A DNA stretch of 40,000 bases from Candidatus Altimarinota bacterium (GCA_025210615.1 JAOARJ010000013.1:1-40000); one strand, 5' to 3'; counted from the first letter of the stretch, positions 16,555-40,000 are shown. Numbers and translations: made by a program. The notes: generated from the letters alone by a model not told the origin.

Positions 16555-16564
16555 AATTATAAAA

Positions 16565-17485
16565 TTAGAAATTAATATCAGATAAAATAGAAACACTAGA
16601 GATATAGATTAATATTCAAAGTACAGTGTAAAGAATAATATCTTTTCATTTCTGCATTTTTGAATCATCTCCTCAAGATAATAAATAATAGTATCATCAT
16701 AGAGTTATAAAGAAGAATGCGACAGGCGCTAAGAAATAAGCTCATACTTGCATTAATTGTTGATATAATTTTTCTCAAGCCATTAAATCATTTGCAAATA
16801 CTAAACTCTTGAATCATTCTATAAGTCCTACAAAGAATAATCAGAATAATCAGTAAGAGAATTTGAATTTTCATTCAGTAACATTTTCTTCTTTTCATCT
16901 TGAAGAAATAACTCTTCCTCAAGCTAAAATAAACATAAGTATAGCAGAGGCAAATATTAATACCTCCAAAAAAGTAATAACATTTTCTGAAACAACTGTT
17001 AGGAAATTATCTCATGCTAGTAAACTTATACTTGTTCAATCAGAAAATGTATCAGGATTTGAAGTTAAAGATTTATCTTTGTTATTAGTAACAAATACAT
17101 CTTTTAATAATTCAGGAATATTTATAAATAATAATCAAGTTAAAGCGTAGTATAATTGTTTCTTAGAAGAAGACAACTGTTCTTCATTTGTTCACATTGA
17201 TAATACCATCATAATTCAAGTATATACAAGAAAAATAACTAATACTCACTGTAAAGTCGTTTTTAAAATGGCAATAGCACTACCTCATAAAATGTTAGCA
17301 TTTTCTGTTAAGCTAGCATTATTTAATCCTTCTTTTAACATTGAAACATCTTTTACACTGTCAATTTTATTTAAGCTATCTATTCATACAACTCATTTTT
17401 CATTATTATCATCTCAAGCAGCCAAACAAATACTTCAATAAAAAGCAGTAATAATCGTGATAATGAAAAGTAATATTTTTTTCAT
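16565..17485 (-). CDS. Membrane protein with signal peptide and three pilin-like two-TM hairpin modules (306 aa)
   Basis: I checked every triplet of this frame: no TAA or TAG. Loops are 'SMGTNEEQLSSSKKQLYYALTGL', 'SSRGKEENVTEGKFKFSYGLFGL' and 'LSGGDDSKMQKGKDIILYTVLGI'. Confidence 0.75.
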
Positions 17486-17515
17486 AATTATAAAAATTAA
17501 TTATTATATTTTATT

Positions 17516-18595
17516 TTAAGTCGGTGGTTTTATAACAGGTCATACTTCGCTTGATAAGAAGAATACTGTTATTGTATAACTAGCCGATACTATAAACATT
17601 CAGATAAGGGCATATAGTAACCATTTTTTTCATTTTTCCATATTCTCTTCATTTCATCAAGAGGTTACCATTAATCCTCAAGCATAAATAATTATAATAG
17701 TTACTATTACTAACATAAAAGTATTTCCCCAGTTTATAATGTCAGTTACTATATCTACTCATTCTTTAAAATTAACTTTTCATCTACATCCTCATTCTTT
17801 ACCACAATTAATATCTCAATAAAGGCTTTTTATCATTGCTCAAGATACTTTTACCATAACATATCACATTATAGCGTAGATAACTCAGTCTTTTCATTTT
17901 TTTACTTTATCTTCTTGTCCACGGGCAGTTATTAGTCTGTAAGCTGAATATACCATCATTGCTACAAATCAGAATCAAGTTAGAAATAACATAAATTGAG
18001 CAATAGGATTTATTATGTTTATAAGTAGAACTTCTCATAATTGACCATCTACTTGACCAGCATTTTCTCATACTCAAGGTTTATAAAGATTTACAGCTAC
18101 ACTATAAGCGATTTGCATAACAATAAGTCAGACACTTGTCCATATAACAGTTTTTTTAACATTTTGAAACTCTTCTTCAGAATTTTGTGTGAAAACAAGT
18201 CTTAAAACCATTATAAGCAAATATATAGAAGAGATGATATATACAAGATTTTTCATATCTTTTGCCACGGTTATAAGAAAATTATAAATTCCTCAAGTTC
18301 CAGTAACTTCCTCTTGAACAGTATGAAAACCACTTTTCATCTTTTCAAGAGGCTTAATTTCTCTTTTTGTTCCTTGGGTATTATCTTGACGACCACTGTT
18401 ATCATCTTTTCAACTACCTCAAGTATTTCCAGAAGATTCTTTTCAGCCAGCAGAATTATCTGTTACTATAGTAGGAGAGTTTTCACTTTCATATCATTTA
18501 TATTTATTATCTCTTGTACTGATATCTCAAAAAGCACTTCATATAGACAAGCTAAATATAAAACAGAATGTAATTATTTTTATAAAATTTTTCAT
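17516..18595 (-). CDS. Membrane protein with signal peptide, a Gly/Ser/Asp-rich linker and three pilin-like two-TM hairpin modules (359 aa)
   Basis: Loops are 'FTQNSEEEFQNVKKTVIWTSVGL', 'TARGQEDKVKKGKDGVIYAIMGY' and 'TSGGNEENMEKGKKWLLYALIGM'. Confidence 0.7.
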
Positions 18596-18638
18596 AATTA
18601 TTTTTATTAGAAGAAAAGTATTAATTAATTTGTTATTT

Positions 18639-21368
18639 TTAATTTGTAATTCATAATCTAGCTTCTATTTCCATATCTACATATTTTCTCTTTCTACCAT
18701 ATTTTTTTCTTGAATATTCTTTTAAAATACCCGCTGCTTTTGTGTTCTTATAATTATTATCCCGGATAGTTTTTATATCAAATGGTCTACTCGAAGCATT
18801 ATTTATATTTAGTTTACAATAAGTTGTGAAATTTGCAATACCAATTATATCTTGTTGTGATAAAACTGGAGCATATTCTTTTTCTAAATACTCAGCATCT
18901 TCAGCTCAGACCTTGAAACTCATTATAGTACCAGCATTACCGAATACTGCATCTTTAATAGATGGTTTATCTCATTTTTGAGCTCAAGAAGCATTAATTT
19001 GAGCAATAAATTGGTGAGCCATTATAAGAGCTAAACGATATTTTCTGGCTTCTGATAATATTTCTCAGAAAGTTTCTGTTGCAAAATTTTGGAATTCATC
19101 TACATATAGATAGAAATCTTTTCTTTCATCTTCTGGAATATCAGCTCTACTCATCGCAGCCATATTCATTTTAGATACATAAATCAATCATAATAATTGC
19201 GCATTAAGTGCTCAAATTTTACCTTTAGAAAGATTTACTAATACAATTTTTTCATTATCCATAGCGTGTCTAATATTGAAAGCTGATTTAGGTTGTCCTA
19301 TAATATTACGAATAGTAGTATTAGTAATAAATGGGCCAAATTTTGAACTGAAATAAGGAATCATTTCTTGTTTTTCTCTATCTCAAGTATTAGCATACTC
19401 ATGGTCCCAAAAAGATTTTACTACAGGATTTTGTACTTTTGAAGTTTTATACTTCATAAAAGCATCATCAGTAAACAATCTAGGTACATCAATAAGTGTT
19501 CCTCACTCATCTAAATCTTCCATTAATGTCAAACAACCATTACGGAAATAATGTTGTATACGAGGACCAAAAATTTCATCACCAAATATTTTTATAAAGA
19601 TTTCAGTAGCGTCCATTGCGGCTCTATCCATTTCTCTTTTTCTGGCTTCTGACTCACTAGATATTACCTCAAGCATATTCAGCCCCATAGGTCTATCATC
19701 ATCAGCAGGGTCAAAGACAATTACATCTTTTGCTCTTTCTTTTGGAGTAAAAGCTAGAATATCTTCAACCAAATCACCATGCGGATCAATAACTCATAAA
19801 CCATGTCCAGCCCGTACATCTTGTCTAGCTAAATATCATACAAATACAGATTTTCAACCTCAAGATTTTCAGATAACATAATGGTGTCTACCCCTGTCTT
19901 TTTTATCAAAATAGATAGGAGTTTTTCTACTTCTATATTCATTCCATCACATTAAAACTCAATCTTCATAAGTTTTAAAACCTCAAAGTTCCATATGAAC
20001 TTTTTTCATATTTCAGTTTTTATCTTTTTTTTCTAAAATAATAGGTTTTTTAGGTTGTTTAAGATTATGCGGAGGAGCTAGTTTTTTATATTCTAACCAT
20101 TCAATAATAGGACTTCTATTATAGTTTATATCAGGAAAGTGATACATACTTGATAGCTCATCAATAGAAAAAATTGAAATATTTTGAAACATTCATAAAA
20201 GTCTATATTTATAAGCAAAATATCTAATAGGAGTAAAAATAAATGGCAAAGCATCTTCTATAAGTTGCGGATTATCAAGAGAATTATTATATTCGTCAGC
20301 ATAAATTGTAGCTGCTCAAATAATAGCATGAACTCATTCTTCAGCATTTCTTGAGCTTTTACTTGAACAAATTATTCTAATAGATGTTCTAAATGATAAT
20401 TGCCCAGCAGATTCTCACATTATTTTTTGCGCTTCTACTTCAGCTTGATTAAATATTTTATAAGAATCTCAAGAATTGGCTCAAGGAGCATTATTAGGGT
20501 CTTTTACCATACTATCTGGTCATTGAAAAATGGCTACAATAGGATTCCAAAAAATATCTAAAAATGGAATATTTCTTTTTTTACTATATTCTCATTTCGC
20601 TACTAATCAAGCAGCTCTTTTAGCTTTTTTAGCCCAAGAGCCTGGAGCAGGTTTTATAACAATTTGAAATACTGCTTTGTCATCTTTAGCAAGACCTCAA
20701 AATACATTTGTGAAATTATTTAATCAATCATCTTCCATATATTTATACGTTCTAATAGGGAAAACATCATCATTTTCTTTTCATAAAGAAGCAGCTCTTG
20801 TAGTATATCAATTTGGTTTTAATTTAAATTCTCCTTCTTCAACAAATTCAACTTCAGCATCATTATAAAGCGAAGTTATATGTTGTTGTACTAGATTAGC
20901 ATATTGCTCGTAAGTAGACACATAAAAATGAACTTTTCACATATCGTATACAAGTTCCATACTAACTTTCGCATGATTGAAAAGCAAATTCATAACTGTA
21001 TCATATAATCCCGCTTCAGAAAGTTTATTTACAGCTTTATAAAACATACTCATAATTCAGATTTTTTCTTTGAAGTCCTTTTTTGTTTCTCTTTCTTTGT
21101 CTAATTTTGAATCTGCTTTTGGCAATGTAATTTTCATATAAACTAATTTTTTTGCAGTCCACATTTCAAACATCAAACGCATTGTTTTAACAATCAAAAC
21201 AAGAAGTAAAATAGTTAAAACTATCCCTAAAATAATATAAAGCACATCTCAAATAACTCAATTTAAAATTCATCAAGAAGTTTGAGCAGTTTCAGTTGCA
21301 GCAGTTTGTTTTTCAATTGTTTTATTTGCGTCTAATAAACTAGACATAAATACATTATAAATTTGCAT
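18639..21368 (-). CDS. T4SS ATPase of the FtsK/HerA superfamily, VirD4/TraG/TraD-like coupling protein (909 aa; 902 aa if it starts at ATG 21347)
   Basis: N-terminal TM 'VLYIILGIVLTILLLVLIV'. Walker A 'HYVIGKSGGGKS' at 19848-19874, where three Gly are TGA. 'VIDPHGDL', Walker B 'FYLYVDEFQNF', and the TraG-D_C-like 'ARKYRLALIMAHQFIAQI'. Track fragments 19503-19772 and 21057-21245 are in frame. Confidence 0.88.
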
Positions 21369-21449
21369 AATTTTCTTTAATATTATTTTTATTTGTATAA
21401 GTCTATCATATTTTTTTAAAAAAGCCAATAATTTAGGTTTGACAAATTA

Positions 21450-21490
21450 AAAAAAACTAAAAAAATAAAGAAGTAATAGCAACTTCTTTA
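21450..21490 (-). terminator. Rho-independent terminator after the Kazal-domain gene
   Basis: A 9-bp stem, 21466-21474 with 21482-21490 ('taaagaagt' / 'acttcttta'), followed on the minus strand by a T-run. Confidence 0.65.
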
Positions 21491-21499
21491 TTAAAAATA

Positions 21500-22618
21500 T
21501 TAGTTATTTTCAAAATAAATTTTAGCATTTTTTAAATTAATTTCTTGTAATTCTTTTACTTTTTCTTGAAAAAATTTATTATTTTTAGATAATTTTTTTG
21601 CAAAATCAGCAGGGAAAATAAATCATAAATCTTCATCTTTAAAATTATTTCATCAATCAGGTTTTTTATATCAAATTATTTCATATTTATCATCAGTTAT
21701 CTTAGTTTGCATTAGGATAGGAATAATTGTTTGCACTCAAGTATGAATTCATCACTCCTTATCTTCATAATATTCTTCAGAAACAACTATTACATAATTA
21801 TCAGTAATTCAAGTGTCTTTATTTTCAGTTTTTCAAACTATATTAAAAGCAGTTATTCTAGCTCATCATAAAGCCCTTACTCAAATATTATCTTTAATAT
21901 AATTTATCCTTAGTAAATCAACTTTTTCTTTAGTGTTTTCAGTAATATATTTATTGTTACTTTCATCTTGATTTTCGTCCTTATTTTCTTCTGAAGAATC
22001 AGAATTTTTTTCTGTATTATTAGATGTTTTTTCTTCGTCATCTTCAGCCACTATAACAGTAGTATTCTTATTTTCTTCTTCCAATTTTTTAATTAATTCT
22101 TGTTCTTTTTTTATAAGCTCTTGTTTTCTTTTTTCTAGTTCAGCTTTTTCTTTTTCTTCTGCTTCTTTTTTAGAAATTAAATTATCTCTATATTTTATAA
22201 AAGCATTTGTTACATTTTTTATTTTTTCTTCTGTTATTCTCGCGTCTGGTTTAACTTCTTTGATTTGAGATAATAAATTATTTATAAATTTTATTTTTCT
22301 TTCATAATCAAATTTATAAGTAACAAAATAATTATCTAAAAATATTGTTATTCTAGCTTCATCTTCTGAAATATCTGATTTTTCTGTTAAATCTCAGCTA
22401 GGTTTATCTTCCCCAGAACAACTACCAAAATAATCAGTTTCTACTCAGGCTTCTTTCATATAACAAGAATTTTGATAAGTGATTCAATCTTTCCCGCAGA
22501 CAGGATAATAATTGTTTGTACATAAAGAAGCATTAGTATTATTTATGTTTAATACTCAAAATATTCCTGCTAAAATTAATAAAAAAATTTTATTTTTTAA
22601 TATATTTTTTATAGTCAT
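21500..22618 (-). CDS. Secreted protein with an N-terminal Kazal-type protease-inhibitor-like domain, a KE-rich coiled coil and an acidic low-complexity linker (372 aa)
   Basis: Signal-like 'IFLLILAGIFGVLNINNTNA', then 'LCTNNYYPVCGKDGITYQNSCYMKEAGVETDYFGSC' (the 'PVCG-DG-TY-N-C' Kazal core). Track ORF 21881-22084 is in frame. Confidence 0.78.
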
Positions 22619-22674
22619 GATTTTGTTTTATATTTTAAATTATTTAAGATATAATACTCAAAAATAATTTTTGT

Positions 22675-22700
22675 CAAAAAAAGACTAGAATTTCTAGCCT
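22675..22700 (-). terminator. Rho-independent terminator overlapping the stop of the 812-aa gene
   Basis: The minus strand reads 'aggctagaaattctagtcttttttt'. The TAG stop (22696-22694) lies in the stem. Confidence 0.65.
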
Positions 22701-25132
22701 AATTCTCCTCATACACTGAAAGTATTTGTCATGTCTGTAATATCTTTTCTGTTTTTTGATTCTTCTAGCCACTGCGCGATTATATTTTCATTTATCATTC
22801 AGTCTTCTCTTATTATTCAAGACTTTTGTCATTGTAATATAGTTTGTTCTTTTGTTTTGAATCTTCATTTAAAGAATCTAGTTAGTTGTCAAAAATCTTT
22901 TGAAATACTAATTTCCTCTTCCATATTTAGCATCATTAATATTATTCTTATAAGTTTTTTAGCTTCAGCAGGTTTTACTCAATCACTTAGATTAATATCA
23001 GTTTTTAGGTCTGTCATTGTTCAGATAGTACTCAAAAAAGGTATAAACGGAGATAATCTACATTCTTCAAAAATATCTACAAGGGCCAAGTAAGAAAGAG
23101 CATCAGCTTTAGATTTAAAAGTTTCAGTTTTTCAAGTAGATATAATATTTAATTTAATTTCTCAATTATCTAATTCTTTCCATTTCATTCAAAAATTATC
23201 AGTTTTATTTTTAGCGTCTTCTATTGTAAAGTTTTCTTCAGTAACAGTTTTTCAGTTGATAGTAAATTTTGTCATTCTTTCACCATCTCTTTTTTGACTT
23301 TCTTTTTTGCTTTTTTCTTCTTCTTTTTTTTGCTTTTCACTTTTGTTTTTATCTTCATCTTTTTTAGTGTATTTTATTTCATTTGTGTTTAAAGCTAGTT
23401 CTTGTAATGAATTTGATAAATTACTAAAGAAAGTATTTTCCTCTATTTTAGGCAATAGGGACTCTTTATCATCTAAAATTAATTTTATAATAATAGGAAG
23501 ACCTTTTTCTTGTAAATATAATTGACAATCATCAACTCATTCTTTCCAGTTTGTAAATAAATCAATAAATTTATTATAATCTCAAGGATTTTGAGGTCAT
23601 AAAACACTTTGTAATTTATTTAGAAAGTCGTCAGAATCTTTAGAATTTTCATATAACCAAATCATATAATCTCATAATTCCTCTCAATCAAAAATTGATA
23701 AAGACTTAGAATTCTTTATTTTATTTTCAAATCTTTCATAGTGTTCATCTGTACCTATAATAGCTTCTGCTTCATGTATTTTTTCTTTTACGAAGGAAAG
23801 CGATTTTTGTATAATAGGTGCTGAAACAATTTCATCTACTGCTTTATCAAGTAAATCTTTTGCTCATTCAGCAACATATTCAAGAGGATTTTTTGATTCT
23901 AATGCTTTATTTACAGATTCTTTTACAGAAGAAACAATTTCACTAACTTCTTCAGGAAGATTTTCTACAAACTCCACTGTATCTTCGGCTAGAGAACTAA
24001 CTCCATCAATACTATCAGTTATGAATTCTTGTATATTTTCTCAAGCATTAGATAAATTTGCTTCTAGATTTCCCATTGTTTCTGAGAAAGAAAACATTTC
24101 ATCTAATCTATCTAGAATAATTTCATTATCTGTTCTAGTGTCTGCTAAAATATTATTTTGTAGGGCAAATTCTTGCCAACGGCTTTCAGGAGAAGAACCA
24201 AAAGAATCAAAAAAACTAGAATTTTCTTGTTGCTCTTCTTGTTTTATGAAATCTAAAACTTTTTGTTCAGTATAATCTAAATTATCTTTTTTTTGCTTTA
24301 ATAAATAATCTAGGGCTTCATCTCAAGTTTTATTTTTAATTATATTTTTAAAATTTTTGAATATAGTATAATTAAAACGCCATGAATTTTCATCAGTTTT
24401 ATAGAATCTTTTATCCTTAAGAGCAGCGCTTATTTGAGAAATAAGAGAAGTTAATAAATGCCTTTTAGCAGGAGAGGATGTAAGTTTATTATAAATTTCT
24501 TGTTTTAAGGCTTTAGACTCTTCATCAAATAATTTATTAAGGTCATTAAATTCTTTATTGCCAGAAAATACTTCTAAATCTTCACGAGTAAGTCAGGTTT
24601 CTTGCAATTTTTTTAAATCTTGTATTTCTTGCCTTAGATAAAATAAATTTTCAGAAGTTTTTTCTTTTGATAATTTTAAAAAGTTATTATATGCTTTTTC
24701 TATTTCATCAAATTCTTTATATATTTTGTTTATTTGTTTGGAATTTCATTTGTAAGAGTCTAATAATTTAGAATAAATATTTATTGCAGAATTAAACTCT
24801 TCACCTGCTTCATTAAGTACTTTTTTTTCAGATAAAATTTTTAAATCTCTTATAGTAAACCATTTTTTTTGTAATTTTTTTAGATCTTGAAATTCTTGTT
24901 TTAGGTAAAACAGGTCATCAGGTGTTTTTTCTCTAGATAATACTTTTAAATTATCATATATTTCCTCTATTTCATCAAATTTTTTATATATTCTGTTTAG
25001 TTGTTCAGGTTTTCATTTATAAGCTTCTGTTAATTCAGAATATATGTCAACAGCAGAATTAAAAATATTATCAGCTTCTTGTTCAGGAGAAATATTTTCT
25101 AAAGATACATTTTTGTTTTCTATTACATTCAT
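22694..25132 (-). CDS. Large, predicted cytoplasmic, helical protein of unknown function (812 aa) with an N-terminal 2 x 89-aa tandem repeat
   Basis: ATG at 25132-25130. Open under code 25 to TAG. Track ORFs 25013-25195 and 23252-23455 are in frame. No signal peptide or TM segment seen. Confidence 0.72.
24540..25075 (-). repeat. In-frame tandem duplication, period 267 bp (89 aa), two diverged copies
   Basis: 'tatttcatca' recurs at 24701 and 24968. The protein copies are 'NIFNSAVDIYSELTEAYKGKPEQLNRIYKKFDEIEEIYDNLKVLSREKTPDDLFYLKQEFQDLKKLQ' and 'EEFNSAINIYSKLLDSYKGNSKQINKIYKEFDEIEKAYNNFLKLSKEKTSENLFYLRQEIQDLKKLQ'. Confidence 0.8.
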
Positions 25133-25298
25133 AATTTTATTTTTGTTTTTATATTTATTTTGCTCTATTATATCATTTATTTTTTTATATTGCAAATATT
25201 AGAAAGGTTGGCTAAAAACACGAAAAATAGCTTGTAAAATTATAAAAAATAGATATATTTATAAAAAGTAAATTTTTAGTAATTAAGAGGGATTTTTT

Positions 25299-28200
25299 AT
25301 GAGTTTTGTTCACTTGCATAATCATTCGCATTTTTCTATTTTAAAAGGCTTACCAAAGCCAAAGGATTATATAAAAAAGGCAAAAGAATTTTGAATGACT
25401 GCTGTTGCACTTACTGATTCGTGAAATCTTCATTGATGACACGAGTTTTATAAAGCGTGTAAAAGTGAATGAATAAAGCCTATTTTATGAATAGAAATCA
25501 ATGTTACAAATAGCCCAGTAAGTGAAAAAAATAAAGACAATTTACCTCATAAATTAGTACTACTTGCTAAAAATATTAAGTGATATAGAAATATTATAGA
25601 TTTAGTAACTTTATCAAATCTTGAGTGATTTTATTTTGAGCCAAGAGTTGATATAGAAATGATAAAAAAATATTCTAGTGATATTATTGCTTTATCTGGT
25701 CCTATTTCTTGAGATATTCCTTATCAAATTTTAGCTTGAAAAACTGACGAAGAAATCTTAGAAAGAATTAAATTCTATCAAGATATTTTTTGAGAAGAAA
25801 ATTTTTATTTAGAACTTCTTTATCACTCAGACATTCCAAAACAAGAATTAGTTACAAACAAACTTATAGAACTTCATAAAAAATATGACATTCCAGTAGT
25901 TGCTGCTAACGATTGTTTTTATATTGAAAAAGAAGATAAACAAACTCAAGATGTTATAATGTGTCTTAATACTGGTCATACAATGGATAATCCAGATAGA
26001 CCAACGCTTATAAATTGAGATTACTCATTTCTATCAGAAGAAGCTATGCAAATGCAGTTTTGACATGTGCCAAGCGCTTTAGAAAATACAAATAAAATAG
26101 CTGACCAAATAGATATAGAATTTGAAACTTGATGAATATTAATACCAAAATATGATCTTCCAGAACATCATCAAAAAATATATGAAAGAGCTTTAGAGTT
26201 AGAAAAAGATGAAAAATGATTAAAAAAATTAACTTCAGATGAATGGTATTTAAGATACCTTTGTTTTGCGTGATTAAATCATAGATATAATTATGATATT
26301 AGTGAAGAAGTTATTTTAGAATTTGTAAAAAAATTAGATAAACCAAGTCTTGATAAAGTTCTTCAAGAAACTTCGCCAGAAGAGCTAAAAGACTTATCAA
26401 TAACTTATTATACTGATAAGAAAAAAGAAATTTTAGCTTGACTAAGCGAAGATATTCAAGAAAAAGTAGAAAGGCTAGAATATGAGTTAGTAGTAGTACA
26501 TGAAATGTGATTCGACGGATACTTTTTGATAGTAGCGGATTATATTAATTGGGCGAGAGATAATGACATTCCTGTTTGACCTTGAAGATGATCAGCGGCT
26601 TGAGCATTACTTGCTTATTTATCATGAATAACTGATATTGATCCTCTTAAATATTCACTACTTTTTGAAAGATTTTTGAACCCAGCTAGAGTGTCAATGC
26701 CTGATATTGATACGGATTTTTCTGATGATGCTAGAGATAAAGTAATTGAATATTGTAGAAATAAATATTGAGCTGACCATGTGGCACAAATTTGTACATT
26801 TTGAACTTTCGCAGCCAGAGCTGCCGTAAAAGATGTATGAAGAGTTTTTGGTATAGAGTTTCAAGAAATGAATAAATTAGCCGCACTAATTCCAGAAAAA
26901 CCAGGTACAAAATTAGCAAAAGCTTTAGATGAAGCGCCAGAATTCCAAATGGCATATAGACAAAATCCAAAATATACAAAAATCATTGATAATGCCCTTA
27001 AGATAGAATGAAACGTAAGACAAATTTGAGTTCATGCTTGTGCGGTTATTATTGCTCCTGAAAAAATGACAAATTTTACTGCATTACAAAATCCACCAAA
27101 AGATAAAGAAGCTATAATTACTCAATATTCAGCTTATCCATTAGAAGATTTAGGATTATTAAAAATGGATTTCTTATGATTAAGAAACTTGACTATTATT
27201 AAAAGAGCTCAAAAAATAATTGAAAGAAGTAAATGAGAAAAAGTAGATGTATTAGATATAAATCTTGAAGACCCTAAAGTTTTTGAAATTTTTGCAAATG
27301 GTGATACGACTTGAGTTTTTCAGTTTGAATCTGATTGAATGAGAAAATATTTGAAAGACCTGTGACCAAATACTTTTGAAGACATTATTGTTATGGTATC
27401 GCTTTATCGTCCTGGTCCACTTCAATATATTCCAACTTATATTGATAGAAAACATTGAAGAGAAGAAGTTAAATTTGAGCATGAATCATTAGAAGAAATA
27501 TTAGCTCCAACTCAATGAATAGCCGTTTATCAAGAACAAATAATGCAAATGGTACAAGCTTTTGCAGGTTTTTCACTATGAGAAGCGGATATTCTAAGGA
27601 GAGCCATTTGAAAGAAAAAAATAGATGTATTAATGGAACAAAAAGCTAAATTTGTAAAAGAAGCTTGAAAACAAGGGCACTCAGAAAAACTAGCTTTACA
27701 TATTTTTGAAGATGTAATTGAGCCTTTTGCTGGATACTGATTTAATAAATCTCATGCCGCTTGTTATGCTTTTATTGCCTATCAAACAGCATTTTTAAAA
27801 GCTTATTATCCAACAGAATTTTTAGCTTCAGTAATGACAAGTGATGAGGAAAATATGGAAAGAATTGTTATGGAAGTATGAGAAGCAGAAAGTAAATGAA
27901 TAAGCGTGCTACCACCGAATGTAAATGAATCTTTAAAACATTTTACATATATTGATGATGATAATATCAGATTTTGATTAAAGGCTATAAAATGACTTTG
28001 AGATTGACCTATTGAATGAATTATTAAAGCTAGAGAAGAGGGGGGAAAATTTGTAACGCTAGAAGATTTTATAAAAAGAACTTGAAAAGATGTTATAAAT
28101 AAAAGGGTTCTAGAAGCGCTTATTAAATCTTGAGCAATAGATGATTTTTGAGAAAGATGACAAATGTGGCATAATATAGCTGAAATGACAAGATTTGTAA

Positions 28201-29366
28201 AAAATGAAGAGAAAAAAGAAGATTCAGCTCAAATTTGATTATTTGAACTAGCTGAAGATGAAGATTTTAGTGATAAATTAATTTTAGAAGAATGTAACCC
28301 TTTTACTTATGCAGAAAAATTAGATTGAGAACAAGAAATGATTTGATTTTGGGTATCAGGCCATCCTCTTGATTGATTAAAAGCTTATACAAAAAATCAA
28401 ACAAAAAAAGCAGATTTATTAGTGAAATCTTTTGAGGATTATGCTAAAGAGCAAGAGGAAGAAGAAAAGAAAAAACAAGAAGAAAAAGAGAAAAAGAAAA
28501 ATGCACAAATAACGCAGGCTTTAGAATGATGAGAAAATAAACCTCAAAATAATCAAAATAAATTTAAGAAAAAATGAAGAAAAGAACCAGAAAATGTTGT
28601 ACAAACGGCTTGATATATATTAGATGTTCGTAAATTTATGACGAAGAATTGAAAAAATATGCTAGTGGCTAGTTTTGAAAATTATTATTGAAGTTTTGAA
28701 ATAACTGTTTTTGATAGATTTTATGAAGCTTTGCAAGAAAAGATAAAACCTTGAAAATTTGTTTTACTAGAGGGAAGTTTGTCAGTAAATACGGAATATC
28801 TAAGAAAATCTATTCTGGTAAATGAGCCAGCAAAAGTCCAAACATTAAGTCTTGATTTTATAAGAAGTATAGCTAAAAAGAAGGGAGTTTTTGATGATAG
28901 TAAGTTTAATAAATTTTTGCAAAATAATGATGAAGAAATACAAAATAATTTAGAAAAAACTGACGAAAAAGTAGAAAATAATGAAGATTTAGAACAAAAA
29001 AACAGTGAAAATAATAAAAAAATAGATGAAAAAGTAGATAATTTTGATAAAAAAAGCGAAAAAAATAATGAAATTCCAGAAGAAATTATACAAGAAGTAG
29101 AAAAAATCGAAGAAGAAAAAAATGATAATAGTGCATGTGAAATATTTGAAGAAGAAATTTTGAAAGAATTTATAATTCCAGTTCCAAATACAGCTCATAA
29201 ATTAGATTTAGTTGAGATGAAAAAATATTTGCAAGAATTAGAGCCTTGAGAAACAGAAATATTTATAGATATCAGGTGAAATAAATTATCAACAAAAATA
29301 AAAATAAAAAATTATAATGAAATAAAAGATTGGGCAGAAAAAAAATGGTCTATAATAATAAATTAA
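25299..29366 (+). CDS. dnaE: DNA polymerase III alpha subunit (1355 aa) with a KE-rich insertion and a low-complexity C-terminal tail
   Basis: PHP '[15 protein letters not shown]', '[25 protein letters not shown]', '[19 protein letters not shown]' and '[13 protein letters not shown]'. An SD-like 'aagaggga' lies 8 nt upstream of the ATG. I checked it codon by codon. Confidence 0.95.
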
Positions 29367-29437: not shown

Positions 29438-32400
29438 ATGCAATTCAAATTTACAAAATTTATAACTGATGATAGGTATAATAAAACTCAAAAAATTATT
29501 TCATTTGCTGTAATTTCAGCGATGTTATTTATGATGTCAGTTAGAGTTCCACTTGAGAAATATTTGATTGAAACTTCATATGCTAGTGATGATACTTTTT
29601 ATAAAGTTGTTTCTATTTTGGTAAATGAAGATATTTATCCTCAAATAGGCGATAAAGTAAAGAGATATGCTAAAGATATTTCTGGGGCTATGGAAAATAC
29701 TAAGACTGTTATTGTTCCTATTCCTAGTGATGCGAAAAGTGAAAAAATAGCTTCTATAAATGAAAAATTTTATTTTGAATGATTACCTGATAAGAGTTTT
29801 AAATCATCTCTTGTATGAACTGTTTTGGTTTGAGATATAAAATTGCCAGTTGTTTATTTGAATTGAAATAGTGAAAAAACAGTTTTACCTTACGCTGATT
29901 TTAAAGATAAATGATTTATTTTTAATAATACTGCTTGAAAATATATTTATAATGCGAGTAATCTTTGAGATATAAAACCTGAAGTTTGGCATTGAATTAT
30001 TTCTCCAAATTCTTGAAGCAGTGAAACAAATATTCAGCAAATAAAAGATTTTTTTGATAAAGATCATGATTTTTATACCTTTAATTGAAATTTTGAAGCG
30101 GCAGATTTAAAATCAAATGAGCCGTATGTATTTTATTTTGATTCCTTAAGAGAACAAGAATCAATAATTTATGAAAAATATAAGTGATACGAAGCTCGTC
30201 AGAAAAATTTAGAAGACCTAATGTATAGGAGATATACTTGAGAACTAGCTGAAAAATTAAAAGAAATTTATAGTGCGACAAGTGAGCAAGAGATAAAAGA
30301 TTTACTTGAAAAATTATCTTGAAAAGAAGTTACAAAAGATGTTGTACAAATGCCGAATACGGATTTTCTTTGAGATGTGAATGCTAGATATATGATAAGC
30401 TCTATGATAAAGCAATATCCTGAAATTTTTAACGATAGCGGGATTTGAGAAATGAGAAATAATGTGGCGAATGCTTGAAGATATAATGCTAGTTTAAAAC
30501 ATATAAATGTAGATTTTGTTTTATCTTTTGTATGAAAACTTGATAAATTGTCTGAAGTTATTTTAAAAGAAGTAGCGACAGATTTGGAAGCGGAAGTGGA
30601 TAAAGCTGTAAAAAATAGTTTGTCTAAAAAAATAGAAATTCCTACAAAAATAAAAAAAGAGATTATTTCTTATAAAATGGTAGGTTCTTGATGAGGAGCT
30701 CCGTGAGCTCCAGTTGTAGCGACGCCTGAAGAAGTAGCGAAAGAAACAAATATTTACACAAATATTTTATATTGAAAGAAAGCTGAAACAATAGAGGAAA
30801 CAAAAGAATGTACTATTTATAGAGGTTCTATGGAAAACTCTGGAAAATTAGTAGAAGCAAATAGATGATATAATGTTCAATTAATTCAAGATGATATTGA
30901 GTTATTGAAAAAAGAAAGTGCTGAAAGATGTTTGAAAGATCCTCCTGAAATAAATGCGCGGTTTGGTTGAACAACCCCTATTAATATAGACCAAGAAAGT
31001 TTTTCTTCTTGAGATATAAAATTAAAAGTGTATGATGTTAAATCTTCTTTGTTGCCTTTATTTTCAATAGAAGGTTCAAAACAAAGCAAAGAAAGCGCTA
31101 AAGTTCCATCTCCAAAAAATTGTTTAGAAAATAATTTCTTATGGACTTATGAAGCCAAAACTGAAAAAGATTGACCAGGGAAACCTCCTAGGAATGTGCC
31201 TTTAAATCAGGATTTTTCAGAGGCTGAAAATTGGGATTGTACTTTTCCTTATACGCCTAAATGACCAGCAGAATATCAAAGTGCTACATACGAATCTGTT
31301 CTAGCAAAGGCAGAATGACAATGTGATATTGAAGTAAAATTAGACTGAGTAACTATAGTTGCTTTAAATCCTTGTTCTATTCCTATTTGATGAATTTGAG
31401 AAGTTACAACAAGGGAAATTGAATATTATGATTTTAAATCAATAAATTCTGAAATGGAGCATAAATCTCCAACAGATGAGGAATTAAAAGCGCAAATTAG
31501 TAACATTGTTTCGCCAGATTTACCAGTTGATAAAGATAGGTATATCGATTTTATTGGCGCGGGAGGTTATCAAAAAATAAAATATCCTTATCCATTTAGA
31601 ATTTGAGTTGGTAAAGATGAATTACTAACAATGAAAAATATTGAAAAAGCTGTTAAAGCAGAATTAGCTGGAGCTTCGGCTTGAGCTTGAGTTGATTTAC
31701 TTAATTTTGTTAGAAATAAAGCGAATAATACTTTCAAAACTTGAACAACTACAAAAGATATTTCATATTATGATACATTTTTATTCGCTGTTTATTGGAA
31801 TAATTTAAAATCTGCAACAGCAAAATATAATTATGTTTTCAGAAGATACTTAAACGATGTAGTTATAAATGATGACAAGTGATGAAGAAATGGAGAAGAG
31901 CTTAGTCTCGCTAATTCTATTATAGATGAGAATTCGCAGGTTGAGAAAAAAGTTCCTTATCCTGGGATAAAAAGATTTTATGAGTCTGCTCATTTAAGCG
32001 CGCCTTGAACAGCTGATAAGATGTTTATAAGTGTTGACCCTGAGGTGAAATGAGTTTCTCCTATTTGAGATATTGAAGCGGCTAATTCTGGTTTAGATAA
32101 TCAAATGGCATCAGCTGCCGCTTGACAAGATGACTCTGGATGAGGTAGTACGAAATGTAGTCCTCCTGAATGAGTACCTATTCGGGAATGGCTTCCTGCT
32201 GTTTTTTGTCGGTTGGCGGAAGTAATGGATACGGCTTGAGCGATTATGGAAAGTGATTGTTGTGGTCCTTCTGTTTTTTGAGAAGACACAGAAGATTTAT
32301 GATTTGATGAAGCAGAAAAAATTGCTAAGTATGACCAAACATTATGATGAAGAATTCCTGAAGGAACTTGCTGACAAGATGCTAATGATAATTGAATAAA

Positions 32401-35400
32401 AGATTGCATTGAAAAGTCAGATGAAATTTATATAGCTTGAGATGAAACTGGATTATATAACTCAGTTATTGAATATAAAGTTGCTAATAAATTTAAATGA
32501 GTTAGTAATGTAAATGATAACAAGACAAGTATTTCTCTTGAAATTCAAAAAATAGAAGTATCGAAAGATGAAACAAAACCATTGTCAGATACAAATAAAA
32601 AACTTGTTTATAAAAAATGAGATGATGAGAAAATTATTTCTACTTATGTGACTTTACCAAAGCCTTTAGTTGTAAAAGATTGAAGAACTAAAATAAATCT
32701 TATTACTCAAAATAGTGAAGCTTATGTTTATTTAAAAGCAAAAGCTACTTTATACGCGGATGCTTGAAAAGCTGATGTAATAAATTATTCAGATGAAAAG
32801 AGATTAGCTATTTCTTGAACAAAATTAAGATTATATTCTCAAAAAATATCTAGTATAGAATGATTAGTTTTATCGAGTACTTCTGATAAAGCTTTAGTTT
32901 CTGATAAGAAAAATTTATTCTTATATGATAAAAATGAATACAGAGTTAATGATAATAGAGATGCTATAAATGCTTTTTCATTAGCTGAGGATAAATTATT
33001 AATTTGAATTTCAAATATAAAAGACACTTGAGGAGAAATAAGTGTAAATTATCCAATTAAATTAAATATTTTAGATAAAAATGATGAAAAAGTAAACGAA
33101 AGAGATATTATAATTAAAGATGGACAAATTGATACTCCTGTGTCATTAGGTTCTATTTCTAAGGCTGGAAATTATAAAATTCAAATAGAAGATAATAGAT
33201 GATTTACTGAAGTTAAAGATATAACTTTTGCTCCTGATAAAGTGGACCATATTACGACAGTTTCAGCGACAAGTGTTATAGAAGCTGGTTGAGTAGAGAT
33301 TTCGGATATTGTAGAACTTCGTGATAAATATAATAATATAGCGGCGGGGACATTATATGATTTAGAGCTTGAAATTGTTTGAGATTCTATAACTTTTGGT
33401 GATAATACAAAAACTAAAAAAATTAGTCTTATAGAATGACTAAAAGCGTTAGATATAAAATCTACTAATATTTCATGAACTTCAAAAATTATTTATAAAA
33501 TAAAATGAACAGAGGAAAATTGATTTGATATAACTGAATCTTGAAAAGATATTAGAGTTGAAAAAGAAATAAAAGTTGTAGAGCATATTGATTATGAAAT
33601 AGAATTTCCTGATGATATGGAAGTATGAAACAATACTTATAGTTATAAAGTGAAGATAAATACGGCTGATGATTTTAATAGTGTTTGATTTACTTATTTA
33701 GATAAGATTTATTGAACAGCGCCTGAAGCATTTAGAATAGAAAATTCTGTTTGAGAAGGAACTTTTACGACTACAAATATAGCGAAAGAAGATGTTGTTA
33801 TTCAATTTAAGGTTGCTTGAATTAAAAAAATTATAGAAAAAAGAATAACAATAAAACCTCTTAAGCCTTTGAAACTAGATTTTGTTTTAGAAAAATCTAG
33901 ATTAAGTGCTGATTTAGAAGATAAAACTAAAGTTTATGTAACGCTTAGAGATGTATTTTGAAATGCAGTATTTACAGATAATAGAACACAAGTAGTTTTA
34001 TCTATTTATCCTGATTATCAAAGTATTTTAAAGACAGATGTAGAAAGAAAAGTTGTTACTAATTGAAAAGCTCAATTTGAATTAAAATCTACAAATATTC
34101 CGTGACTAGCTTTCTTTAGATTATCAACTTCATCTAATAATCTTTCTTTTAATTCTTATGAATATAAATGAAAAGATTGAGAAACTAAGACGATTTTATG
34201 AGTTTGAGAAAATGCTTGACATATAAAGAGTGGGTATTTTTGGACTGCTGACAAAATAATGGCAGGGAATTATAATTCTTTATATTCAACCCTTATTTGA
34301 GCGAATTATTGAGATATAAGTCAACAAGATTATTTAGCGTCTTGAATAATTTTTGATAAGGATAATAAATGACTTGCTGTTACGACTCTTTTAAATAATC
34401 CAAGAGATTATCCAGAAGTATTTTCTGTTTCTCCTTATTGAAATTTAGAAGTGTCTGACACTCCTGATTTAACTCAAAACATTGAGAAAGATTTATATTA
34501 TGGAGAAGGGCAAATAACAAAGATAAATTTATTTAATTCTGGATTAAATAAATATGTTTGAGAAGTTGTTTATAATTTTGATCATGCGACTTTAAAAGAA
34601 TGTAATATATTAGACGAAGAGAATTGTTATAATTTAACAGACAAAGACAAAAAAGATTATATTTATTATAAATGATTTAATAATCATAAGTTTGTTCGTG
34701 ATGGAGATAAAATAGTGCTTAGAAATTTTGTTGATGCTGATATTGTTTCTATAAATTGAAATTGACAAATTTTTGATGTAGCGAAATATTATACTATAGC
34801 GATTTCAGGAGAAAATGATAGCGAAAATTTAATGCTAGATGTTTTAGATAAATCTTGAACTGTTCTTTGAAAAATAGTTTTTTCTAATTACTGAAGCATA
34901 AAATTATCAAGACAAAAAGAATATATTAGAACGAAATGAGAAGTTATAATTTATCTTGATTCTACTGATTATGGAGCTATCAAAAAATATTATTGAGTTG
35001 ATAACGAAGATAAAACTTGATTAGCTGTTCGGTATAATGATGCATTTGGTTCTGATAATTCTACAAATAGTTTTGCAAAATTATATTTGAATTGACATGA
35101 AGATATAGAAAATGATTGAACAGGCTGGAAAGATGAAAATAAAATAATGCTAGCTTACGCAAATGGGCAATCTGTTTGAGAGGCGACAAAAAATTATGCT
35201 AGTTTTTCTATGGTGAATATTTGAGATCCTGTTGTAAGTTTATCTAGATTTAAAGCTGATTCTATAACAAGAGTTAAAGGAAAAAGTACTAGCACAAGAT
35301 CTTTTGACTCAACAATTTGAAAACTACTGGAAGATAATATAGATATTATTTCTTATGATAGTTTTGATTATAATCATGATAATTATGAGGATATTGTTAT

Positions 35401-38400
35401 ATTTTTGAATTCTTGATTTATAAAATTATTTGAAAATAATAAATGAGAATATATTGATAGATGAAATATTGCGAATTTAGAAGATGTGTCTAAAAATTCA
35501 AAATATTGAGTATGAGATTTTGCTGATGATTGATTCTGAGAAATAGTATTTTTCAATAAAAATTTTGAATTAAATATACTAAACAATGATAAAAAAGATT
35601 TTGTAAGAGTTAGTTTAAAAGATGATTTAATTTTAAATTGAAGATTGACAGATTTTAAAATCTTTGATATGGATAACGATTGAAAAGATGATATCGTTAC
35701 TCTAGACGATGCTTGAGAAATAAATATTTTTTATAGTAAAAGTACTCAAGATAAGCCGATTTTTGTGAAAAAATTTATAGTTGATTGAATGTGAGTTTCT
35801 ATAAATAGACAAGAAACAAATACTTGAATGGCTGTATATTTTGATTGATTAAAACAGTTAGAAGATGTGAAAAATATCTCAAGTGATAGTATGGATGAAG
35901 CAACAAGAGAAATAAAAGAATCTGTTTCTGGGATTGTAAACGAAGTAAATGCAGGACTTGAAAATACGACAACAGCGACAGCTCAAGTTTGAAAAACATG
36001 AGTAGATAGGTCGACTTTTGAGAAGATGATTTTCTATAAATTTAATTTTACTCCAGATAGTAAAAAACCTGAGGTAGATGAGAATTTAACTAAACATGAA
36101 CAAGAGAAACAAAATGTAGTGAAAGTTATAAGTGATATGGATTGAATTACGGAGGAAACAGCGAAAGCGTATGATAAATCTTTTGCTTTGATAGAACAGT
36201 GAGCTTGAAGCGGTTCTGTGGTTAGTTATGCTTGAGAAACAAATAATTTATCTATGACTACTTTTGTTAGATGAGAATATGTTGATTTTCAAGGGATAAA
36301 AATAACAAAATTTTCTGAGGATAATAATAAATCGCCTTTACAAACTGATGATATAGTGAAAACGACTATAAAAGTCAAAAATAATAATGCTAGAGATATA
36401 GAAGATTTTATTTTACTGGAAGATATTCCTAAATATTTAAAGAAAACTGCTGATTTCAAAGTATTAGTAAATTGACAAAATTATAAGCTAGAGAAAGCTC
36501 CAGAACCATCAAGAGGTTTTGATTTTATGATTCAGTTATGAACAGTTAAAAGATGAGAAGAAATAATTATTACATATGAAACAAAAGCTAAAATCTTTGA
36601 ATCATACCAATTAAAAGTTTGATTATTTGAAGATTGAGAAACGGGAGATGATTTATATTGAGATATTTTATGTAATAAAGTAAATAGAAGCTGTTGAGAA
36701 TCTCAAGATATGTTGAAATCAATATGAGCAAGAGCTTATGAAAGATGATATTCAGATTTATCTTGTCCAGCTCAGTCAAATATAATTTCAATGTACAAAA
36801 CAGATAAGGATTGAAATAATACTCCTGATTTTGTCGACGCACAAATAAAAGCAGCAGAAAAATTACAAGAAACAGGAAAAATGGAGGATTATGAACAAGT
36901 AAAAACTGATTACAATAAAGATAAAAATCAAAATAAAATACCAGACTTTATAGATGAAGTATTTAAATTTTGAAAGACTACTGATATTGAAGAATTTAAT
37001 GTTGACATTGATTTGAATGAAATACCTGATTTTGTAGATGAATTAATTACTGCCTGAAAAGTATCACTAAATACTTATGATAAAGATGCTAACGGTAATA
37101 ATGCTTCTGATTTTATTGACGCTTTAGTAAATAATTCTGATATAGAAAAATTACAAGAAGATAAAAATAAAAATGGAACTTCTGACTTTATAGATGCATT
37201 GATAAAAGCATGAAAAGCCAAACTTACCGAGGAGCAAGAAGCAGGTTATATAGAATCGCATTTAGAAGAATTGAAATGAGATTTAGACTGAAATTGAGAT
37301 CCGTCAGATGATTGAGATTTTTCAGTATGACAAAAAATTTCAGATTGAGATAAAACAGATATTCAATCAAATATTATCAATAATAACTTTAGATTAGAAA
37401 AAAATATTTTAAATAATAAAGATAAAATTTTATCTTATAATTCTGATAATAAATCTAATAAAAATAGTTCAAGTGATATATTTAATTTATTTAGTGTATC
37501 AAAAGTAAATGCTTTAGATTTAGATTATAATGAAGATAAAGATAATAATAATGTACCTGATTTTATTGATAATATTATAGCCTATTGAGCTAAATATAAG
37601 AGAATAAAAGAATTTAATACTGATGCTAATAATAATGAAATTCCTGATTTCATTGATGATTTAATTAATGCTGGAGAATTATTAATTGAAGATTATAAAA
37701 ATGATAGTGATAATAATTGAGTATCTGATTTCTTAGATAAGTTAACAAAACTAACTTCTGATGTCATTACAGATTTCTGAAAAGATGAAAATAATAATAA
37801 CATTTCTGATTTTACTGATTGATTAATATCTGTTTGACAAGCATATTTTACTGAGGATCAAGTTCTTGATTTTTTAGAAACAAATATTTGAGACGCAGCG
37901 CAAGACATAAAGGATAACTGATCTGATTGAAAAAAAGATCAAAAATATGATAATGTGGTAGAAGAAATTTGAGACAAGGCTAAAGATGAGGCAGAAAAAC
38001 TACAAGAAGATAGTGATGATATAAGAGATGACCTACAAGACTCGGTTGATGAAGCTGAGAATGTTCGTTTTGAAGCAGACTGAATGACGTGAACTATTGA
38101 ATTTGGTTTATCAGAGATAACAGATGAAGTTTCTGACGCGATAGATAGTTTGATAGATTGATTTGGTTGTTGATTTGGTTGAGAATGCTTTTCCCCTCCT
38201 ATAAATCGGGCTCCTCTGGCTCCTTGAAATGATATATCATTTTTATGAAAGCCTATTATTGATGGTCTTCATCCTTTTGAGTGACTTCCTATCTTTGCTT
38301 GGCCCACTATGCGTAAACCTTATGTTTGGCCACCTAGTTCTTTGTGAGCAGGTTGACGGTTTCCTCCAAATGGGATATGAAGTTCTATATTTAGATTGTT

Positions 38401-40000
38401 TGTTACTCCTACTTTAACTTGAACATTCTGAATAGCTGTTTGTGGTTGATTTAACTTTATAAATGGTCGGATACCACCTCCATGAGTATCTCCGATTGTT
38501 CCATGATGAAACTGTATTGTTATTGCAGGTCTTTGAAATATGTGTTCAGATGATGAAGAGGACAATAATGAATGAGTAGATGAAACAATTTGATCTCCCG
38601 ATTCAAGTTGTAGTTCTTATTCTATATTTAATTCATGAAGTTGTTCACCTAGTATAGATCCATCTAAAATGGTTTTACCACATGATTTAGTGAAAAATAT
38701 TTTTGATACAGATGCGAGTGATAAAGGCAATGTGGATTATGATTTTTATGAAGATTTTGCAAAAAATATTTGAACAGATGGATATTTTACTTGAGAAGAT
38801 TTATTCAGTTGATTAACAACTGGATGATGAGAATGAATGGATGTTTGAATTTGATTTAATAGTGAAGAATGATGATTTAGTATAACTATTCCTGATGAAA
38901 TAAAAAATTTGAGAATAGGTTCTTTCCCAGCGTTTTTTATGATGCGGTTTGAAAAACAAATGGAAGAAATAATTAATAAGGTTATGGATTTTCCAAAACT
39001 TATAATTATTTTACCTGATACAGAGTGAGTTTGGGATACTATAAAAGATGCTTATAATTGGGAAAATTTTAAAAATAGAGTATGAGAAAAAGAGAAAAAA
39101 TGAAATGCACAAATTAAAGATTTAAAGAAAAAATTAGCAGAAATAGATTGAAAAATATCTAAATTAGAAGCGAAATTATGAAAGAAAAAATCTAGTTCAA
39201 ATTCTTCAAATAAAAAAGTAAATAATAAAAAAACAGGTGAAAATTGAGAAGAATGATTTGAATTACCATACGAAGATTCAAGAGAAAATTTATCTGAATC
39301 AACTTCAGGTTTATTTGAAGATATATGAAATTTCTTTGATGGAAATGATGACGCTAGAAAAATGGATGCTGATAAAAATTATGATCCAGATGCTGAAGCA
39401 GCTACTAGAGAATTAATAGTAAAATTAAGACAAGAAAGAGATAAAATAGAAACAGAAATTTTCATGAGAGAAGCGGAGTTTGAATGAGTTAAAGTTGGTA
39501 CAATAAAAGCTGCTTATGAAGTTTTAACAAAATTACCTCTTTTGAATATAGAAGATGAAACGATTGATGTAATTTTACCTTGGATTTCTCCAGCTATGTT
39601 AGAAGAGATGATTATTAGATGGAAATTAACAATTTGACAACGGAAAAATGAAATAGAAGATAAAAAGAGAAAATATACTCTTTGAGCTTATTGATGTGAT
39701 GGATTAAAGAAAAAAAGCGAAATAGAAGCTTGTTCTTGAAAAATAAATGTATGAATAGACTTAATCACAAATGTAGAAGATTTAATAGAATCAGTAGATA
39801 AAAATATTGAAATTTTAGAATCATATACTGAAATTCCGGAGAAAATATATGATTATATGAAGAAAAAAGAAGTTCGGTTAGAGCAAATTTTGTGTAATGT
39901 GAAGACTATTTCTGAAATGCTTTGAGGTTTTATTAAGAGAAACTGAAAGATATTTAAAAAATGGGTAGAGTTGTATATTTTAATAAAATGAATTTTAAAA
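29438..40000 (+). CDS. Giant membrane-anchored surface protein, 5' partial at the window end (at least 3521 codons, no stop reached)
   Basis: I parsed the frame-2 triplets continuously from ATG 29438 to 40000 and found no TAA or TAG. I re-verified the frame at 32096, 38228 and 39998. N-terminal anchor 'IISFAVISAMLFMMSV'. TGA occurs on average every 20-30 codons, with no standard-code ORF of 60 aa or more in this frame beyond the first segment (29438-29782). Confidence 0.85.
36800..37830 (+). repeat. Array of about 9 degenerate in-frame Asp/Asn-rich repeats (thrombospondin type 3-like, putative Ca-binding) inside the giant ORF
   Basis: 'DKDGNNTPDFVDAQI', 'DKNQNKIPDFIDEVF', 'DLNEIPDFVDELI', 'DANGNNASDFIDALV', 'DKNKNGTSDFIDALI', 'DKDNNNVPDFIDNII', 'DANNNEIPDFIDDLI', 'DSDNNGVSDFLDKL' and 'DENNNNISDFTDGLI'. 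Confidence 0.75.

Follow-up and report, generated by a model that had tools for sequence, protein, structure and literature searches.

What does a local rise in GC content mean inside a single giant reading frame of a genome that is otherwise very rich in A and T? The question is posed by positions 38160-38660 of the stretch of DNA analysed here (the window), which comprises the first 40,000 nucleotides of contig JAOARJ010000013.1 (nt 1-40000) from Candidatus Altimarinota bacterium GCA_025210615.1, a genome of 1.25 Mb in 16 contigs with 26% GC. The segment lies within a plus-strand open reading frame (ORF) that occupies 29438-40000, is cut by the window at its 3' end and continues to 43891 in the genome; with TGA read as Gly (translation table 25), it contains 251 in-frame TGA codons and encodes a protein of 4,817 amino acids (aa), referred to as the query. 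A preliminary description, made from the sequence, had taken the segment to be a Gly/Pro/Cys/Trp-rich module of this protein, under strong amino-acid constraint and of no assignable family, and had suggested that it might serve membrane insertion, fusion or processing. Our analysis shows that the GC rise is the nucleotide footprint of a lineage-specific domain of ~130-140 residues (aa 2908-3046), and that this domain lies in the conserved core (aa 2900-3750) of a giant surface protein that occurs class-wide and as a single copy. What the domain is can be stated much more firmly than what it does.

Gracilibacteria, the class to which the protein is confined, have reduced genomes, have not been cultured and are thought to live on other cells. 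Giant 'VCBS/FG-GAP repeat-containing' proteins of Candidatus Gracilibacteria are present in the databases (the class is discussed in PMC11452946, and giant membrane proteins of Vampirococcus in PMC8080830). These proteins are orthologues of the query, with the same length class and block order and with FG-GAP and invasin-like Ig domains upstream. Nevertheless, their annotation rests on the FG-GAP/VCBS repeat only, and neither the module nor the aa 2900-3750 core is described in the records; in the literature examined on Gracilibacteria giants, including the two papers above, we likewise found no description of either.

Origin of the GC rise

The code-25 translation given for 38160-38660 in the preliminary description is identical to our retranslation, and the GC rise exists: the peak over the module reaches 0.42, 0.39 and 0.378 in sliding windows of 150, 300 and 450 nt, respectively, against a mean of 0.266 for the whole stretch (z = 2.6-2.8; 0.4-0.7% of windows are that high), and the GC content of 38,159-38,575 is 37-40%. 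The shift is therefore real, but 'sharply' somewhat overstates it, since the increase starts near 37,900. Nor is this island unique in the window, as it comes second to 31,785-32,452 of the same ORF (0.40-0.48).

At the protein level, aa 2908-3051 depart from the rest of the protein in Gly (17.4% versus 6.8%), Pro (13.2% versus 3.1%), Cys (3.5% versus 0.6%), Phe (8.3% versus 4.4%) and Lys (1.4% versus 9.3%). The labels Gly-, Pro- and Cys-rich are thus deserved, but Trp does not belong among them, there being only two Trp residues (W2955 and W2964) in the query module. Within codons, the GC content of the module is 0.528 versus 0.311 at position 2, 0.424 versus 0.376 at position 1 and 0.16 versus 0.13 at position 3 (GC3). 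TGA accounts for 17 of the 25 module Gly codons (68%, compared with 73% elsewhere), and Pro is encoded by CCT or CCA at 17 of its 19 positions, matching the rest of the gene. Since GC is raised at position 2 while GC3 and codon choice remain native, the GC bump reflects amino-acid composition in native DNA.

Shadow ORFs overlapping the module are indeed present on both strands. The off-frame one on the plus strand (38205-38417, 70 codons) is attributable to the low frequency of TAA and TAG in DNA that encodes much Pro and Gly, and the antisense one on the minus strand (38320-38616, 98 codons) has an open length of 67-179 codons among orthologues. These open alternative frames, together with the local GC rise, are what could be cited for a segment that is no protein feature at all, but a foreign insert, an assembly chimera, an antisense gene or an embedded RNA; we give this view almost no credence. 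Alternative-frame open lengths over the module are very variable among 71 orthologues and track composition, for which reason an overlapping antisense gene was rejected; the shadow ORFs are best read as a probable by-product of composition. An embedded RNA was rejected for want of any Rfam match at E up to 1. Foreign DNA and assembly artefact, which the preliminary description had named beside poor conservation as findings that would count against it, were rejected as well: GC3 and codons are native, including the 17 in-frame TGA Gly codons, and the segment is well conserved and occupies the same position in >150 orthologous giants.

Architecture and conservation

For the alignments used in this section, genome loci were retranslated with code 25, given the apparent TGA=Trp translations in the databases. 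This yielded a full-length alignment of 53 sequences (the query and 52 code-25 orthologues) and an alignment of 72 sequences that includes the module. All features in this section lie on the plus strand.

The Gly/Pro/Cys-rich module core (38159-38545; aa 2908-3036) extends from GFGCGFGG to the last invariant Cys, C3036, and is entered through an acidic amphipathic helix (38117-38164; aa 2894-2909, ITDEVSDAIDSLIDGF), predicted at low confidence at model residues 2-17 or 2-18 in both of our AlphaFold runs. Motif 1 (38168-38227; aa 2911-2930, CGFGGECFSPPINRAPLAPG) includes a short Cys-x5/6-Cys loop and has the family consensus CGFGGGSC-x3-P-L-N-W-A-P-L-A-P-G, in which C, G, C, P, N, A, P, L and G are invariant in 72/72 orthologues. 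Motif 2 (38390-38449; aa 2985-3004, FRLFVTPTLTGTFGIAVCGG), which is predicted to form a beta-hairpin and is more hydrophobic than any other stretch of the module, has R, P, T, T, G and C invariant in the 72-sequence alignment and is the piece best kept in distant orthologues. Motif 3 (38492-38530; aa 3019-3031, PIVPGGNCIVIAG) comprises the third long strand and a conserved Asn-Cys, of which the Cys is invariant and the Asn is found in at least 90%. C3036 is followed by an acidic tail, SDDEEDNNEG (38546-38575), whose family consensus, K-x-D-G-S-x-G-D, looks like a possible Ca-binding loop.

The position of the module in the giant is fixed, with a variable-length segment upstream and, downstream, the DGSxGD-type loop, a variable linker and a strongly conserved, mostly helical region. 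The linker (38576-38887; aa 3047-3150) is poorly conserved (0.33-0.48) and predicted to be disordered (pLDDT <50; predicted local distance difference test), and holds the conserved C3069 (38642-38644). It sets the module off, as a variable disordered spacer, from conserved block B (38888-39037; aa 3151-3200; majority-residue frequency 0.66), which has the consensus RVxAFPDFxMDWVxRQxEEIxNKLTxLPTLxIILPDF. Conserved block C (aa 3451-3750) starts at 39788, reaches the window edge at 40000 and continues to ~40687 outside it; it contains the last long predicted helices, a PxLP/PPPP-rich stretch and two borderline-hydrophobic helices, carries the invariant motifs CxxCxNER, FPKWPDII and PEWRAGDQ, and matched neither a known family nor a known fold. 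The upstream segment carries N-x-P-D-[FY]-[IL]-D repeats in the query as well as in two fragments inspected. The N-x-P-D-F-[IV]-D array of the query (aa 2550-2850, ~37090-37990) is largely query-specific in its extent, with 0-10% orthologue coverage, and the fragments, P0104 and P0108, have shorter N-x-P-D-Y-[IL]-D runs directly before the module.

Against a whole-protein mean majority-residue frequency of 0.38 in the 53-sequence alignment, the module (aa 2901-3050) reaches 0.60-0.68 and block C (aa 3476-3725) 0.69-0.71. The idea that the module might be the most conserved part of the protein is therefore not borne out: it ranks second, as aa 3476-3725 are higher within the order and far higher class-wide. 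Class-wide E-values are 1e-50 to 1e-115 for blocks B and C compared with 1e-8 to 1e-16 for the module, which outside the order diverges much faster than aa 3476-3725. The inferred amino-acid constraint on the module is nevertheless confirmed, both by the GC rise at codon position 2 with native GC3 and by ~25 positions that are invariant in 72 orthologues. With aa 2893 numbered 1, these are C19, G20, C25, P29, N31, A33, P34, L35, G38, G45, P59, P69, P73, G80, G81, R94, P99, T100, T102, G106, C110, P127, G132, C134 and C144; no His, Asp, Glu, Ser or Lys is invariant or near-invariant. In distant lineages, two motifs persist even where the standard code is used: C-x(2-5)-G-x-C-x3-P-x-N-[WY]-A-x-L-x-P-G and R-[LF]-[FY]-x-[ST]-P-T-[LI]-T-G-x-x-G-x-A-x-C-x-G.

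Distribution of the module and its host protein

A word-indexed search with query aa 2880-3100 returned 89 proteins, all of 2,735-5,200 aa, and the few named matches are VCBS- or FG-GAP-repeat-containing proteins of Candidatus Gracilibacteria. An exhaustive hidden Markov model (HMM) search of 1.84 billion cluster representatives gave at least 150 matches, each a single-copy giant or a fragment; among the matches listed, the module lies mostly ~55-65% along the length of the giant. Stand-alone module proteins were considered and rejected, as the four that were inspected (252-678 aa) are contig-end fragments running into the next conserved block; the other short HMM matches span only parts of the profile. 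When 401 genomes were searched, the module profile matched none of the 376 non-Gracilibacteria Patescibacteria genomes among them, and its matches were confined to the same class; the genome of the query itself has one module match. A scan of one genome per species confirmed 89 relatives and kept 80 loci, including those of the complete genomes HOT-871 (CP017714) and 28_42_T64 (CP042461).

The host protein is equally well delimited. In BLAST comparisons with 88 homologues, most of the 4,817 aa are covered at 0.9-1.0, and the query, collinear over its full length and present in one copy, belongs to the orthologous group of Gracilibacteria giants named 'VCBS repeat-containing protein'; module-bearing giants, of 3,200-5,200 aa, are restricted to the class Gracilibacteria. 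With a longer core profile, the protein was detected in 101 of 151 class genomes and 82 of 114 genera, and the core region is present in 15/15 sampled genomes of the same order. In roughly one third of the class genomes, among them every listed genome of three families (f2, f9 and f162), the giant is missing or escapes detection. It occurs in a second TGA-recoded lineage as well as in many standard-code lineages, where the ORFs are uninterrupted and encode 3,000-7,874 aa; since recoded and standard-code lineages share it, the giant is probably older than the code change, with loss, or divergence past detection, in some clades. These results show the module to be a native, single-copy, family-restricted and highly constrained domain with six conserved Cys residues and no detectable relatives outside the family.

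Approximately five sixths of the family sequences in the databases have 2-8% Trp and a correspondingly low Gly content. We read these high-Trp sequences as probable TGA=Trp mistranslations, in which the conserved Gly residues of the module would have been turned into Trp. A VCBS-repeat protein of genome WB 25_16 (locus L034), which bears an orthologue, has been reported at the protein level in a metaproteome (PMC11452946); this expressed protein is probably the orthologue of the giant.

Homology searches and structure prediction

The earlier statement that the module cannot be assigned to a known family holds, as searches of Pfam, NCBIfam and PDB and with Foldseek were all empty. No module match was obtained in Pfam-A or NCBIfam with the whole protein, or with 40 module sequences taken singly (Pfam, E up to 10). 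The best PDB hit by hmmsearch had an E-value of 0.27 and consisted of antibody chains, which we treated as chance. Foldseek with the 868-residue model gave unrelated helical proteins at best E-values of 0.56 (PDB) and 0.033 (BFVD), and with the module-only model nothing better than noise (E 3.4), although with models of moderate to low confidence a fold could be missed.

AlphaFold on the module alone had a mean pLDDT of 46, and this model was rejected as unusable; its 40-sequence alignment was contaminated by TGA=Trp mistranslations, which we suspect of having degraded the prediction. For aa 2893-3760 with the clean 72-sequence alignment, the mean pLDDT was 63 and the predicted template modelling score (pTM) 0.38. 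In this model, the module core (pLDDT 57-78) is a small four-stranded sheet with Pro/Gly loops. The predicted strands are aa 2953-2955, 2985-2991, 2997-3003 and 3026-3031, and nearly the same four appeared in the first run; pLDDT is ~77 for aa 2985-2991 and 2997-3003 and ~78 for aa 3026-3031. Residues 3035-3160 are predicted to be disordered and are followed by helices of 45-72 residues (pLDDT mostly 70-92), then a beta-hairpin, a Pro-rich irregular stretch and more helices.

Cysteines and export

The N-terminal hydrophobic signal/anchor of the giant (aa 20-38, plus strand) reaches a 19-residue Kyte-Doolittle mean of at least 1.6 in 91% of orthologues and is the only segment across the family that resembles a transmembrane (TM) helix. 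Within the module, C2911, C2917, C3002, C3026 and C3036 are present in 72/72 orthologues, and C3069 in 70/72. In most orthologues, an insertion located between query aa 2960 and 2969 brings in one or two further Cys pairs (for example CG-SPCC ... PGP-CG); a minority, the query among them, lacks this insertion. The extra Cys residues are mostly paired, one pair co-occurring perfectly (phi 1.0), so that the count within aa 2905-3045 is mostly 5, 7 or 9, or 6, 8 or 10 when C3069 is included. A conserved signal/anchor, six conserved Cys and extra Cys mostly in pairs are what a disulfide-rich extracellular domain of a generic kind displays, and the pairwise gain and loss of Cys in an exported protein argues for disulfides. 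The genome encodes a DsbA-like Thioredoxin_4 protein (C12:13994-14416, L092; E 6e-18, above the cut-off).

Membrane propensity

A canonical TM helix (at least 19 residues, mean Kyte-Doolittle ~1.6 or more, conserved hydrophobic) was not found in the module: the query module has no 19-residue window above 1.5, and the family-averaged maximum is 1.23. Taking the best window of each orthologue, the median is 1.46, and 15% reach 1.6 compared with the 91% noted for the N-terminal anchor. On the Wimley-White interfacial scale, however, aa 2909-2927, at -3.6 kcal/mol, form the second-best 19-mer of the 4,817 aa, after the N-terminal anchor, and the module accounts for three of the eight best windows. 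The hydrophobic stretches that had been thought capable of insertion thus include no canonical TM helix, but the CGFGGxC...NWAPL segment does stand out as interface-prone. A membrane-insertion or fusion-loop role is not supported overall, as the hydrophobic stretch is predicted as a beta-hairpin and Foldseek, with models of moderate to low confidence, found no viral fusion protein or other fold in PDB or BFVD; a peripheral contact with a membrane nevertheless retains a low probability.

Genomic context and other parts of the giant

No gene family flanks the giant in more than 14 of the 80 loci, and there is no conserved neighbour. In the window, a cluster resembling a type IV secretion system (T4SS) lies on the minus strand at 15390-25195 and encodes two T4SS_pilin-domain proteins, a 928-aa VirD4/TraG-like coupling ATPase, a Kazal-domain protein and an 832-aa protein without a family match; the DnaE gene (25299-29366) lies between this cluster and the giant. 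Neither dnaE nor the T4SS-like genes are syntenic with the giant in other genomes, and they were rejected as operon partners. Elsewhere in the giant, a Pfam/NCBIfam scan of the whole protein gave only weak matches, to Invasin_D3 and FG-GAP_3. The more GC-rich island at 31785-32452 (aa ~783-1005) is Cys-rich and has a conserved GVPIxxWLPAxFC motif; paralogy of the module with its Cys-rich part (aa 890-995) was rejected at an hhalign probability of 0.6%.

Discussion

The reading that we favour, with a confidence only slightly above even, is that the module is a small extracellular beta-domain, held together by disulfides, which provides the conserved core of the giant with a rigid junction or a surface for contacts. 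Once exported by the Sec route, it would adopt, outside the cytoplasm, the fold of a small sheet of four beta-strands; rigid Pro/Gly loops would wrap this sheet, and approximately three disulfides would brace it. The result would be a compact, protease-resistant junction or docking surface coupling the variable adhesin-like stalk to the conserved helical core, and the exposed aromatic/Gly loops (CGFGGxC and NWAPLAPG) would be the surface on which a partner protein or a component of the envelope makes contact. We infer that the module is not a TM segment, not an enzyme with a classical catalytic set and not a foreign insert. A comparable arrangement is found in LapA-type and ice-binding RTX adhesins of several thousand residues, in which a small conserved non-repeat domain borders long variable Ca-binding repeats; here, too, a conserved compact module stands at the boundary of the repeat region and the functional ends. 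Those adhesins are Gram-negative type I secretion system substrates without cysteines, and their modules are of known fold, whereas the giant starts with a Sec-type N-terminus, is rich in Cys and shares no detectable homology with those adhesins.

Several points weigh against this reading. The junction or docking function is deduced from position and chemistry, and AlphaFold confidence is moderate, with a pLDDT below 40 in the CGFGGxC loop and the pTM of 0.38. The ~25 invariant residues, which include Arg, Asn and three Thr, go beyond the obvious need of a structural junction, a pattern that hints at some activity or contact of a more specific kind. Because of the extra C3058, the query counts seven Cys between aa 2900 and 3080, so that at least one must be unpaired or pair elsewhere, and no DsbB or VKOR that could reoxidise the DsbA-like protein was found in the genome. 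Finally, the interface-prone loops of the module would fit membrane contact equally well.

Membrane contact is the alternative in which the disulfide-framed Gly/aromatic loops (CGFGGxC and NWAPLAPG), together with the FRLFVTPTLTGGxGxAxCFG hairpin, dip into the bilayer of a host or of the bacterium itself, working like viral internal fusion loops or the tips of pore-forming toxins in concert with the downstream long-helix core. We regard it as unlikely. Viral class II/III fusion proteins and fusexins carry disulfide-framed, Gly/aromatic-rich internal fusion loops, and the module resembles them in its short Cys-held Gly/aromatic loops, near-invariant within the family and set in a large exported protein of an organism that attacks other cells, and in its high interfacial propensity (the second-ranked window at aa 2909-2927 and three of the top eight). 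It differs from them in that no sequence or fold similarity was found in PDB or BFVD and no three-domain beta architecture is seen; a Foldseek search with the moderately confident model matched no class II fusion protein or fusexin, nor any other fusion protein or pore-former, in PDB or BFVD (best E 0.56 and 0.033). The hydrophobic residues of the module are nearly invariant within an otherwise highly charged protein, the 15% of orthologues that reach a Kyte-Doolittle value of 1.6 point in the same direction, and helices of 45-72 residues and two borderline-hydrophobic helices lie downstream. On the other hand, the model makes the hydrophobic stretch an ordinary beta-hairpin of the sheet, and no canonical TM helix is present, and -3.6 kcal/mol is modest on a scale on which buried cores likewise score well. 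The two cultured Absconditabacteria are contact-dependent predators, for which attachment by giant surface proteins has been proposed (PMC8080830; PMC11452946). A bolder form of the idea, which we consider distinctly improbable, makes the Cys-framed Gly/aromatic loops the membrane-engaging tip of a new cell-contact device, the aa 2900-3750 core, that breaches or fuses with the envelope of a partner cell; the parts of that core (beta-module, long helices, Pro-rich stretch and amphipathic helices) are common to most Gracilibacteria.

The module could instead anchor the giant by binding the wall or S-layer of its own cell, holding the conserved centre in place while two variable arms project. This, too, seems improbable to us. 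The most conserved part of the protein is indeed central (aa 2900-3750) and its adhesin-like flanks are more variable, as would be expected for contact with conserved self structures; the invariant Arg, Asn and Thr could bind glycan or phosphate, and the PxLP/PPPP stretch of block C resembles wall-spanning regions of Gram-positive surface proteins. Yet no LysM, SLH, SPOR, PG_binding or other wall-binding family matches even at E = 10, and an N-terminal anchor is already present. Self-processing, in which autocatalytic cleavage at Asp-Pro or Asn-Cys would free or activate the distal part as in FrpC-type or Hint/BIL models, we consider very improbable. Such domains are of similar size and lie within large secreted proteins, and the family shares with them a conserved N-terminal Cys, an Asn-Cys ('GGNC', the Cys invariant and the Asn in at least 90%) and, in at least 90% of orthologues, an Asp-Pro ('NDPT'); the 115 residues from C2911 to N3025-C3026 are near mini-intein size. 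However, the module does not combine the features of Hint, intein and BIL domains (a Cys/Ser nucleophile, TxxH and a C-terminal His-Asn followed by Cys/Ser/Thr): without a conserved His it has neither a TxxH block nor a His-Asn junction, nor is any of its Asp, Glu, Ser or Lys residues invariant or nearly so. The conserved scissile Asp-Pro that marks the Ca-dependent FrpC-type module is likewise lacking in the query, which reads N-D-I-S where at least 90% of orthologues read N-D-P-T, so that Asp-Ile replaces Asp-Pro. Searches at E up to 10 gave no match to any family of Hint domains, inteins or peptidases, and Foldseek gave no Hint fold. A processing module, as entertained in the preliminary description, is accordingly disfavoured.

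We therefore retain the disulfide-braced beta-domain as our reading of the module. The host family is already in the databases under a generic repeat-protein name, and the module within it is an orphan cysteine-rich extracellular domain; the conserved central core, module included, is unannotated and is obscured in most databases by wrong-code translation. The module boundaries, invariant residues and Cys pattern given here provide a usable domain definition and a family marker, and the module is a tractable piece of ~140 residues for expression and structural work. If its function proves to be only structural, it would be a routine new domain family. The gene that carries it takes up ~1% of the genome, and is among the largest investments made by Gracilibacteria.

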